Source: an uncultured virus (IMG/VR IMGVR_UViG_3300025000_000094) (taxonomy: Duplodnaviria; Heunggongvirae; Uroviricota; Caudoviricetes). From it: a DNA stretch of 20,000 bases. The notes beneath the pieces are model-generated. The model had not been told where the DNA came from. It worked only from the letters and a program-made list of their open reading frames with translations, and did no database searches. This document shows positions 11,265 to 11,867 of this stretch, one piece after another (position 1 is the first letter of the stretch; each line of letters starts with the position of its first letter). The translations under genes were made by a program, and so were the position numbers. The stretch lies in the IMG/VR virus record IMGVR_UViG_3300025000_000094; one strand, 5' to 3'.

Positions 11265-11849
11265 TTACTGTGCCCCAACCTTAACCCAAGACTGATCCCC
11301 GGCCGGAGCCTCGGTAGAGATGTAGAGCGCATTGTCGCTGGTGAGCACGGCCAGGCAGTTCTTGGCATAGCCGCTGGCCGGCAGGGCCGCCACGGCGCCT
11401 ATCAGGCAGAAGGACTGCGAAGATGTGACGGACGTGGACACTGTGACGGTAGCCGCGGTATGGGTAACAGCCCCGGTAAAAGCGGCGGTAGTGCTGATAA
11501 GGCCGCCGTTAAAGGTGGCCACGCCGGTCCACGCCTGCGCGCCGCTAGCCGCGGTAAACGTGGATTTGTAGTTGGACGCGCCGTAGTAGGCGTTGCCGGT
11601 CTGGGTAAGCACGCCAGACTGCGTTAAGGCCGCGGCGTTGGTAAACACGGCGCCGGCCTGGATGTCCAGGATGGCCCCGCTCAGCAACTCCATCTCGCCG
11701 CCGCTGGTTATCACTTTCTTGGCGCCGCCCTGCTCCGTGTATATCTTGGTGTTATACTGGGCGAACACCGGCGAAGCGGCGGCCATGATCCCGATTATAA
11801 GCACCACCACCAGCAGCTCTAAAAACGTAAATCCTTTTCTGATGTTCAT
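11265..11849 (-). CDS. Head-fibre-like protein with type IV prepilin-type N-terminal leader (~194 aa)
   Basis: Start revised to ATG 11849 (or 11852) behind AAGGAGG; the longer ORF-track start runs through a terminator. [30 protein letters not shown] followed by [17 protein letters not shown].SGG, resembling the N-terminus of phage head-fibre proteins, then a Thr/Ala/Gly-rich shaft. Confidence 0.75.
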   Translation of the reverse strand: [194 protein letters not shown]

Positions 11850-11867
11850 CATTCCTCCTTGGTTAGT

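Follow-up and report, generated by a model that had tools for sequence, protein, structure and literature searches.

We examined a 20,000-nucleotide stretch of DNA from an uncultured tailed virus (IMG/VR record IMGVR_UViG_3300025000_000094), which we will call the window. Our subject is one gene of its late operon, at 11265..11852 on the minus strand, and its product, the window protein. Counted from the first ATG, the open reading frame (ORF) encodes 195 amino acids; this form (P0001) is our numbering reference. A GGAGG sequence lies 1 nucleotide ahead of the first ATG and 4 nucleotides ahead of a second ATG, so the second ATG is the likely translation start. It gives a protein of 194 amino acids that begins MNIRKG, as does a database copy of the identical protein (P0002). 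A first-pass annotation had described 11765-11852, which encode the leader and helix discussed below, as a pilin-type beginning on a head-fiber-like protein.

A prepilin leader and a second cleavage site

The beginning of the window protein matches Pfam's N_methyl model (PF07963) over residues 2-26 (E = 2.7e-6; 27.2 bits, against a cutoff of 21.2) and also TIGR02532 (27.0 bits, against a cutoff of 16.3). These are the profiles that the first-pass annotation had proposed as a check, and every detail of the motif that it listed is correct: Gly at -1, Phe at +1 and +3, Glu at +5, Gly at +14, and 14 hydrophobic or small residues after the Glu. The diagnostic positions read K-G↓F-T-x-x-E, where the arrow marks the predicted cut, and are followed by the Gly at +14 and by a Pro at +21, which we take to be close to the usual P22 of pilins. 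As in other class III signal peptides, a short basic leader ends in Gly and is followed by a hydrophobic helix of about 20 residues with F+1 and E+5. Judged by its sequence, this is a true class III (prepilin) signal, with predicted cleavage.

What follows the signal is different. The cargo is a member of a phage family instead of a pilin, there is a site resembling that of signal peptidase I (SPase I) after the helix, and the gene lies in a head module. The NCBIfam equivalogs for pilins and pseudopilins, which are full-length models, match residues 2-36 only and score far under their cutoffs. A globular pilin domain is absent: the AlphaFold2 model has no beta-sheet domain packed against the helix. 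We considered a real pilin gene that was inserted as a moron and ruled it out, because the protein lacks a pilin domain and its mature part belongs to a phage family.

The site after the helix, SPVFA↓Q, aligns with the signal/module junctions of homologs that have Sec-type signals (AVHA↓QYNTKVY, VAGA↓QYNAKVY, ALGA↓QYATKVY, and AAMA↓QNTKIY). In P0003, an ortholog that is 82-83% identical overall, the counterpart is PAALFA↓QYNTPIY. The c-region has diverged between the window protein and its relatives; the Pro, the small residue at -1, and the Gln are kept. We take SPVFA↓Q to be a retained, predicted SPase I site, as the first-pass annotation had suspected. The hydrophobic helix would then double as the h-region of a Sec-type signal; as an h-region it is long and it contains a Glu. 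A cut at VFA↓Q would leave the mature protein with the N-terminus that the Sec-type relatives have.

Across the first 25 residues, P0003 has 1 difference from the window protein, so the leader is better conserved than the remainder. Since these two proteins are the only ones among 145 non-redundant family members with a prepilin signal, and the others have Sec, lipoprotein, or anchor signals or none (see below), the leader is probably a derived addition to the phage family. This agrees with the earlier proposal that the 5' end of a pilin gene was recruited.

Host pilin-like proteins share with the window protein a QY after the helix. One may speculate that this QY is where a swap was joined.

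A phage family encoded beside the capsid gene

Residues 32-83 of the window protein match positions 2-50 of phrog_12102 (E = 7.2e-6), a family for which PHROGs lists no function. Twelve of 16 other family members that we tested match it as well. The consensus of this N-terminal module (the N-module) is YNTxIYxEQGGxKxVVxSGGEIExQSGxxLDxQSG, and the consensus of a conserved C-terminal module (the C-module) is ...LPxSGYxKxCLAxLTSDxxLYxSTE..SW. As read from the alignments, the layout of the family is a removable N-terminal export or anchor signal, an N-module of ~40 amino acids, a variable stretch rich in Thr and Gly, and a tip domain. Phage fibers usually have a conserved N-terminal adaptor, with distal parts that can be swapped.

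The first-pass annotation had recognized the usual start of a head-fiber protein after the second site. The recognition of a phage start was right: YNTxxYxEQGG opens a phage family that is found in head modules, and 32 of the 145 members begin with it directly. The name was not borne out by profiles, as we found no Pfam head-fiber match at E ≤ 1 and no match to a PHROG "head fiber" family at E ≤ 0.1, either in the window protein or in 16 relatives.

A word-indexed protein search (1,024 candidates) gave 8 proteins at E ≤ 1e-3. Within this set, N_methyl was found only in the identical copy and in P0003, and the other six have classical signal peptides, for instance MKNILSVVVTMMLMASAAMA↓QNTKIYKEQGG. 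An exhaustive search with residues 32-195 gave 156 representative clusters at E ≤ 1e-3, with 16 at E ≤ 1e-10. From a scan of IMG/VR with the N-module alignment, we obtained 182 pattern matches; relatives are encoded on 123 contigs, and we retained 80 loci. A metagenome scan contributed one locus only (L008), and none of the 165 pattern matches from a scan of species genomes with alignment A2 was a relative.

Besides the window's own copies, there were 77 loci, of which 63 were non-redundant. We scanned 148 of the 167 flanking ORFs with Pfam; the other 19 were left out, which removed five loci (L035, L055, L072, L074, and L080) entirely. At 47 of the 57 non-redundant loci with a scanned upstream ORF, a capsid gene (PF05065) lies within the two ORFs upstream of the family gene. 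The ORF between them usually encodes a protein of ~147 amino acids that is homologous to the window's 149-amino-acid jelly-roll protein (see below). The Sec-type homolog at L005, which is 51% identical to the window protein, sits in a syntenic head module. Ten loci are exceptions: three have portal and Mu F genes upstream (L029, L030, and L064), one has a terminase upstream (L047), four have sulfotransferase neighbors (L044, L068, L086, and L087), and the others are L017 and L057.

At the four loci with sulfotransferase neighbors, genes with the PF00685 domain flank the N-module gene and replace the capsid/jelly-roll pair. This hints that some of the fibers or their targets are sulfated. At L008 (3199-5511 of a metagenome contig), a capsid-like gene is followed by three consecutive proteins with Sec signals, and the C-module is on the last of these. 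At L048 (2364-5345), an ORF of 994 amino acids combines a LigT (2'-5' RNA ligase-like) domain with an HK97 capsid domain. This could be a genuine fusion, or else an artifact of ORF calling.

Export signals and paired cysteines

A hidden Markov model (HMM) of the N-module fixed the module's start in 161 of 230 pooled sequences, or 145 after removing redundancy. We classified what precedes the module by rules, not with a trained predictor. By these rules, 109 of the 145 members have an export or anchor sequence at their start. Sec-like signals, with the module at most 12 residues from the hydrophobic core, are the largest class (43 members), followed by a hydrophobic anchor and linker, often with P-x-x-R-[ST] before the module (39), and by signals with a lipobox (25). 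The two prepilin-type members are the window protein and P0003. There is no signal in 32 members (an M, 0-7 residues, and then YNT...), and 4 members fall into none of these classes. By the Pfam HMM, N_methyl is present in 2 of 60 members and in 0 of the 58 other members of alignment A5 (E ≤ 0.01), and the prepilin motif was found at 0 of the 77 other viral loci.

The anchor-and-linker forms and many of the lipobox forms share a stretch of the type P-x-x-(P)-V/I-A/P-R-[STG] right before the module (for instance, L030, L014, P0074, and P0099). A protease might cut at this stretch and so release the N-terminus of the module.

The occurrence of paired cysteines follows that of the signals, which suggests that the export is real. 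Exactly two cysteines lie within the first 40 residues of the module in 31 of the 109 signal-bearing members, as compared to 1 of the 32 signal-less members (Fisher p = 0.0015). Among members with any cysteine in the mature part, the ratio of even to odd counts is 67:22 if a signal is present and 10:12 if it is not (p = 0.0098). As for the pair in the C-module (C149 and C166), both are present in 16 homologs, both are absent in 7, and a single one is present in none. From the sequences, this is the pattern of disulfides that form outside of the cytoplasm, and we infer a Cys149-Cys166 bond in the window protein.

Predicted structure of the window protein

The AlphaFold2 model of the window protein has a predicted local distance difference test (pLDDT) score of 82. 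Residues 10-25 form a helix, the N-module is modeled with confidence and has no regular secondary structure, the spacer is modeled poorly, and the C-module is a confidently predicted small beta domain. Searches for structural matches to this model found none that were significant; the weak matches of the tip domain were to trimerization domains and to small domains of tailspikes. The protein's neighbors in the atlas were viral fiber-like clusters (scores ≤ 0.90), and Phage_depo_C, the C-terminal domain of phage depolymerases, was found on two family members.

The late operon

All genes of the window are on the minus strand and form one late operon (Table 1). Beyond the connector, the operon continues with head completion, gp10-like, and tail completion genes, the major tail protein with its Ig domain, the tape measure, and the tail fiber.

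Table 1. The gene of interest, the parts of its product, and nearby genes and elements of the window.
Feature	Positions	Strand	Evidence or remark
Small terminase	17166-17672	minus	Profile scan
Large terminase	15569-17188	minus	Profile scan
Portal	14363-15568	minus	Profile scan
S78 prohead protease	13599-14366	minus	Profile scan
HK97-type major capsid protein	12400..13596	minus	PF05065, E = 1.2e-55
149-amino-acid jelly-roll gene, phrog_5707, no signal peptide	11923..12372	minus	PHROGs; alignment A4; AlphaFold2
GC-rich 13-bp hairpin, then UUUUU	11868..11903	minus	z = -3.57; 0 of 200 shuffles folded as well
Whole gene of the window protein	11265..11852	minus	Stop codon 11265-11267; second ATG at 11849 gives 194 amino acids (MNIRKG...)
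Basic prepilin leader M(M)NIRKG, Gly(-1) last; predicted prepilin-peptidase site G↓F	11832..11852	minus	PF07963 and TIGR02532 above cutoffs; sequence
Pilin alpha1N-like hydrophobic helix (F+1, E+5, G+14)	11775..11831	minus	Profiles; AlphaFold2 helix, residues 10-25
SPVFA↓Q, SPase I-like c-region (Pro -5, Val -3, Ala -1); borders the phage module	11757..11774	minus	Alignment to Sec-type homologs
Conserved N-terminal phage module, phrog_12102 type	11637..11756	minus	phrog_12102, E = 7.2e-6; own HMM
Variable spacer rich in Thr, Ser, Gly, and Ala	11442..11636	minus	Alignment; low-confidence model
Conserved C-terminal module VSTS..., with Cys149 (11406-11408) and Cys166 (11355-11357)	11268..11441	minus	Alignments
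105-amino-acid gene, phrog_2616 (function unknown in PHROGs)	10935..11252	minus	Starts 12 nucleotides past the stop of the gene of interest
gp6-like connector	10326-10925	minus	Profile scan

The hairpin between the jelly-roll gene and the gene of interest looks like an intrinsic terminator or an attenuator. A scan for consensus terminators missed it, and the same scan found no terminator 3' of the gene of interest. Because there is too little space for a promoter upstream of this gene's ribosome-binding site, and because the next gene starts so soon after its stop codon, it appears to be co-expressed with the head genes, probably in lower amounts.

The jelly-roll fold of the 149-amino-acid neighbor is predicted with high confidence (pLDDT of 91). 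By structure matches, it appears to resemble the cement protein of BPP-1 (PDB 3j4u) and the capsid proteins of two other phages, Milano and 7-7-1. A role in cementing or decorating the capsid is probable. In its 42-member alignment with homologs (A4; 13-37% identity), none of the 42 has a signal-like segment at its N-terminus.

The likely host

The leader of the window protein matches the consensus of Elusimicrobia pilin-like proteins nearly letter for letter. We scanned one genome per species for this leader variant and found at least 133 stretches; among the matches listed, 63 of 80 were labeled as Elusimicrobia, Elusimicrobiota, Elusimicrobiales, Elusimicrobiaceae, Elusimicrobium, or Avelusimicrobium. 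The first-pass annotation had linked such leaders to Elusimicrobium, and the link fits. An expansion of PilE-like proteins in this genus was reportedly described by Herlemann et al. in 2009. In three Elusimicrobia genomes of 1.5-2.0 Mb, we found 84, 118, and 74 N_methyl matches. The PilE-like proteins of Elusimicrobium and other Elusimicrobiaceae have nearly the same leader as the window protein and are similar in length, but the mature part of the window protein does not match them.

We also compared proteins from the window to 401 Elusimicrobiota genomes. For the large terminase, there were 12 hits at E ≤ 1e-20; the best are 42-43% identical and are from two genomes of similar GC content. 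Genome G306 encodes a capsid protein that is 55% identical, followed by a jelly-roll protein that is 35% identical (E = 2e-20), in the same order as in the window. Next in G306 is a signal-less gene of 217 amino acids with a weak N-module motif (E = 0.028), and then a connector. These similarities and the leader suggest that the host of the phage is probably a member of the Elusimicrobiota. In an Elusimicrobiota prophage with a related terminase (L236, in G393:C54), a different protein with a Sec signal is encoded between the capsid and connector genes (5754-6257).

When the mature part was compared to the same genomes, 8 matched. In five of these (L222-L225 and L227), C-modules are found at the C-termini of family-like proteins; the C-module was not seen in the other three ORFs (L226, L228, and L229). 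A complete N-terminus with a Sec signal is present in L222 (378 amino acids) and in L223 (161 amino acids). In L222-L225, the C-module ends proteins that have GNVGIGTTxPxxKL-type repeats and that finish with ..LYVSTETV..SWKxVW. L224 and L225 are open frames of over 1,000 amino acids that run off their loci, with their N-termini beyond view. The C-module may be a surface-anchoring or trimerizing tail domain that is common to host and phage.

An exported fiber of the capsid?

We propose that the window protein is an exported, disulfide-bonded, fiber-like late protein of a long-tailed phage of the HK97 type, and that it is a capsid fiber that matures in the periplasm. We hold this proposal as a whole with moderate confidence; the export, taken alone, seems very probable. 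Our best reading of the alignments is that an ordinary Sec signal was replaced, in this lineage, by the class III signal that the host favors, and that the SPase I-type site was kept.

The protein would be synthesized late, by read-through of the hairpin behind the jelly-roll gene, and its leader would place it in the inner membrane. The host's prepilin peptidase would then cut at G↓F, or SPase I would cut at VFA↓Q, or both; the second cut would yield an N-terminus of QYNTK..., as in the Sec-type relatives. The Cys149-Cys166 bond of the C-terminal domain would be made in the periplasm. In the final step, which is the least secure, the mature fiber would meet the capsid only at lysis, and the N-module would dock. 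If both PilD and SPase I cut the protein, a free pilin-like helix would be left in the membrane.

Several observations weigh against this proposal. Tailed-phage heads are built in the cytoplasm, and the jelly-roll partner lacks a signal, so an exported fiber could reach the capsid only at lysis; we know of no precedent for an exported fiber that joins the capsid then. No profile places any member of the family in the virion, and phrog_12102 has no assigned function. Using tblastn, we found the N-module in none of 50,697 phage records (INPHARED GenBank): the window protein gave no hit, a signal-less relative gave none, and the variable part of a third relative matched YadA-like structural proteins of cyanophages. 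The SPase I site was assessed by eye and by alignment, and the assignment of the host is indirect. Two groundwater Elusimicrobia genomes with about 60% GC, which is about the GC content of the window, have 8 N_methyl matches each. Finally, a recent capture of the leader was supported neither by its codon usage (10th percentile of windows across the phage's genes, which is mildly unusual and not significant) nor by DNA similarity to host pilin loci (at best 87.8% over 41 nucleotides, which is uninformative as these loci were preselected by the same amino-acid pattern).

Non-pilin cargo on the pilin route is known from archaeal sugar-binding proteins with class III signals. A comparable layout is that of the modular pilin PilB of Streptococcus sanguinis. 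PilB presumably keeps its full pilin module, whereas the window protein has only the leader and the alpha1N helix, and its gene is viral and expressed late. According to the excerpted text of PMC8179133, PilB has a functional module grafted behind a class III signal.

Among phage proteins, the window protein can be compared to head fibers and cement proteins such as phi29 gp8.5, the BPP-1 protein (3j4u), and those of Milano and 7-7-1. It shares with them a position after the capsid gene and a conserved N-module with variable distal parts, but they do not match it in sequence or fold and, to our knowledge, they have no export signals.

The family is encoded two genes from the capsid gene, and yet three quarters of its members have export signals, with cysteines to fit. 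This points either to a stage of virion maturation that takes place in the periplasm or after lysis and has yet to be described, or else to a class of exported late phage proteins that is widespread. We tentatively suggest, as a possibility that we rate well below the proposal for the window protein itself, that many tailed phages mature a capsid-associated fiber outside of the cytoplasm by whichever route the host favors (Sec, lipoprotein, anchor, or, in the phage of the window, the pilin route) and join it to the head only at lysis, and that in this phage the machinery of pili or pseudopili may itself extract or display a part of the virion. In CC-licensed articles from PMC and in bioRxiv preprints, we found no main text on export signals of phage head proteins or on prepilin leaders of phage proteins. 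The window protein is also a natural experiment, in which one cargo has exchanged its Sec signal for a pilin-type signal, in a host phylum that uses such signals on about a hundred proteins. Two questions follow: which function class III signals serve for cargo other than pilins in Elusimicrobia, and whether a free N-terminus is required by the phage protein. The window protein also gives a clue to the host of an uncultured group of phages.

Alternative explanations

The export of the window protein could serve the cell envelope instead of the virion. The protein would then be an accessory, a fiber-like adhesin that the phage sends to the periplasm, the surface, or the pilus of its host cell. 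By binding or covering a surface structure, it might keep progeny from being wasted on debris, or it might alter adhesion, and its place in the head module would reflect late co-expression only. The frequency of export signals in the family and the cysteine pattern fit this explanation too. So does the C-module, which is common to Sec-signal proteins of Elusimicrobiota genomes, as does the jelly-roll partner, whose lack of a signal would put the two proteins in different compartments. The layout of a signal, a conserved N-terminal domain, and a variable tip also matches that of the mosaic adhesive trimer (MAT) fibers of Bdellovibrio. In the excerpted text of PMC10769870, these trimeric fibers have a signal peptide, an invariant N-terminal anchoring domain, and swappable tips, with a disulfide in one tip. 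The likeness seen is one of layout. MAT fibers are cellular proteins on the predator's surface, while the window family is phage-encoded beside capsid genes. An envelope protein is harder to reconcile with the signal-less members and with the conserved order of capsid, jelly-roll, and family genes, which is typical of structural genes and not of morons. Also, the gene has neither a separate promoter nor a 3' terminator, and expression just before lysis would leave little time for a function at the surface. We view an envelope role as the main rival of our proposal, possible but doubtful.

The leader might also go unused. Translation from Met23 (the ATG at 11784-11786), or from an internal transcript, would give a cytoplasmic form like the signal-less relatives, with the pilin-like stretch left over as a remnant. 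This ATG is in frame and precedes the module by 10 codons, and P0003 has the Met as well; a sigma-70-like sequence (TTTAGA-18-TATAAT, 11823-11794) ends just upstream of it; and signal-less relatives do exist. However, a strong AAGGAGG site precedes the upstream start, and none precedes Met23. The promoter match is not significant (1 found and 0.3 expected), and the scan does not cover Elusimicrobia promoters. That the leader is more conserved than the remainder of the protein, and that Cys149 and Cys166 are a pair of the exported type, also make an unused leader unlikely.

The first-pass annotation had proposed that the protein enters or jams the host's type IV pilus, as a decoy or minor pilin, for superinfection exclusion or for display on the pilus. 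The class III signal is indeed genuine and conserved, the length of 194 amino acids is within the range of open frames (150-230 amino acids) of the expanded Elusimicrobia pilin-like genes, and a PHROGs family of phage "pilin" morons (phrog_3433) matches weakly (E = 0.012). As the main role, it is nevertheless a little less likely still than an unused leader. The signal is in only 2 of the 145 members, which implies that the family's function is independent of pili, and the relatives' export routes are unrelated to pili. In a lysogen, a gene of a late operon that lies behind a hairpin and lacks its own promoter would not be expressed. There is no globular pilin domain, and cleavage at the retained VFA↓Q would separate the cargo from its helix.

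Lastly, it is very improbable that an ordinary Sec signal peptide resembles a prepilin leader by chance: although the N_methyl model is short (27 positions) and the n-h-c layout with its VFA↓Q site would suit a Sec signal, both profiles are above their cutoffs, every diagnostic position fits, N_methyl did not turn up in the other A5 members (E ≤ 0.01), nor the motif in the other viral loci, and the leader is nearly the Elusimicrobia consensus.

Other features of the window

At 18001-20000, the GC content of the window drops from about 0.60 to 0.49-0.51, and the ORFs there have weak matches (MmcB-like and D12 methyltransferase-like). This may be the boundary of a module of different origin. A small ORF at 17669-18034 adjoins the small terminase and has a weak match to HNH endonucleases (E = 0.009); HNH genes next to terminases are a common arrangement. 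At the other end of the window, there is a Gly_rich_2 domain in the tail fiber (1-2067) and a C-terminal Big_5 Ig-like domain in the major tail protein (8088-8957), both of which are ordinary.

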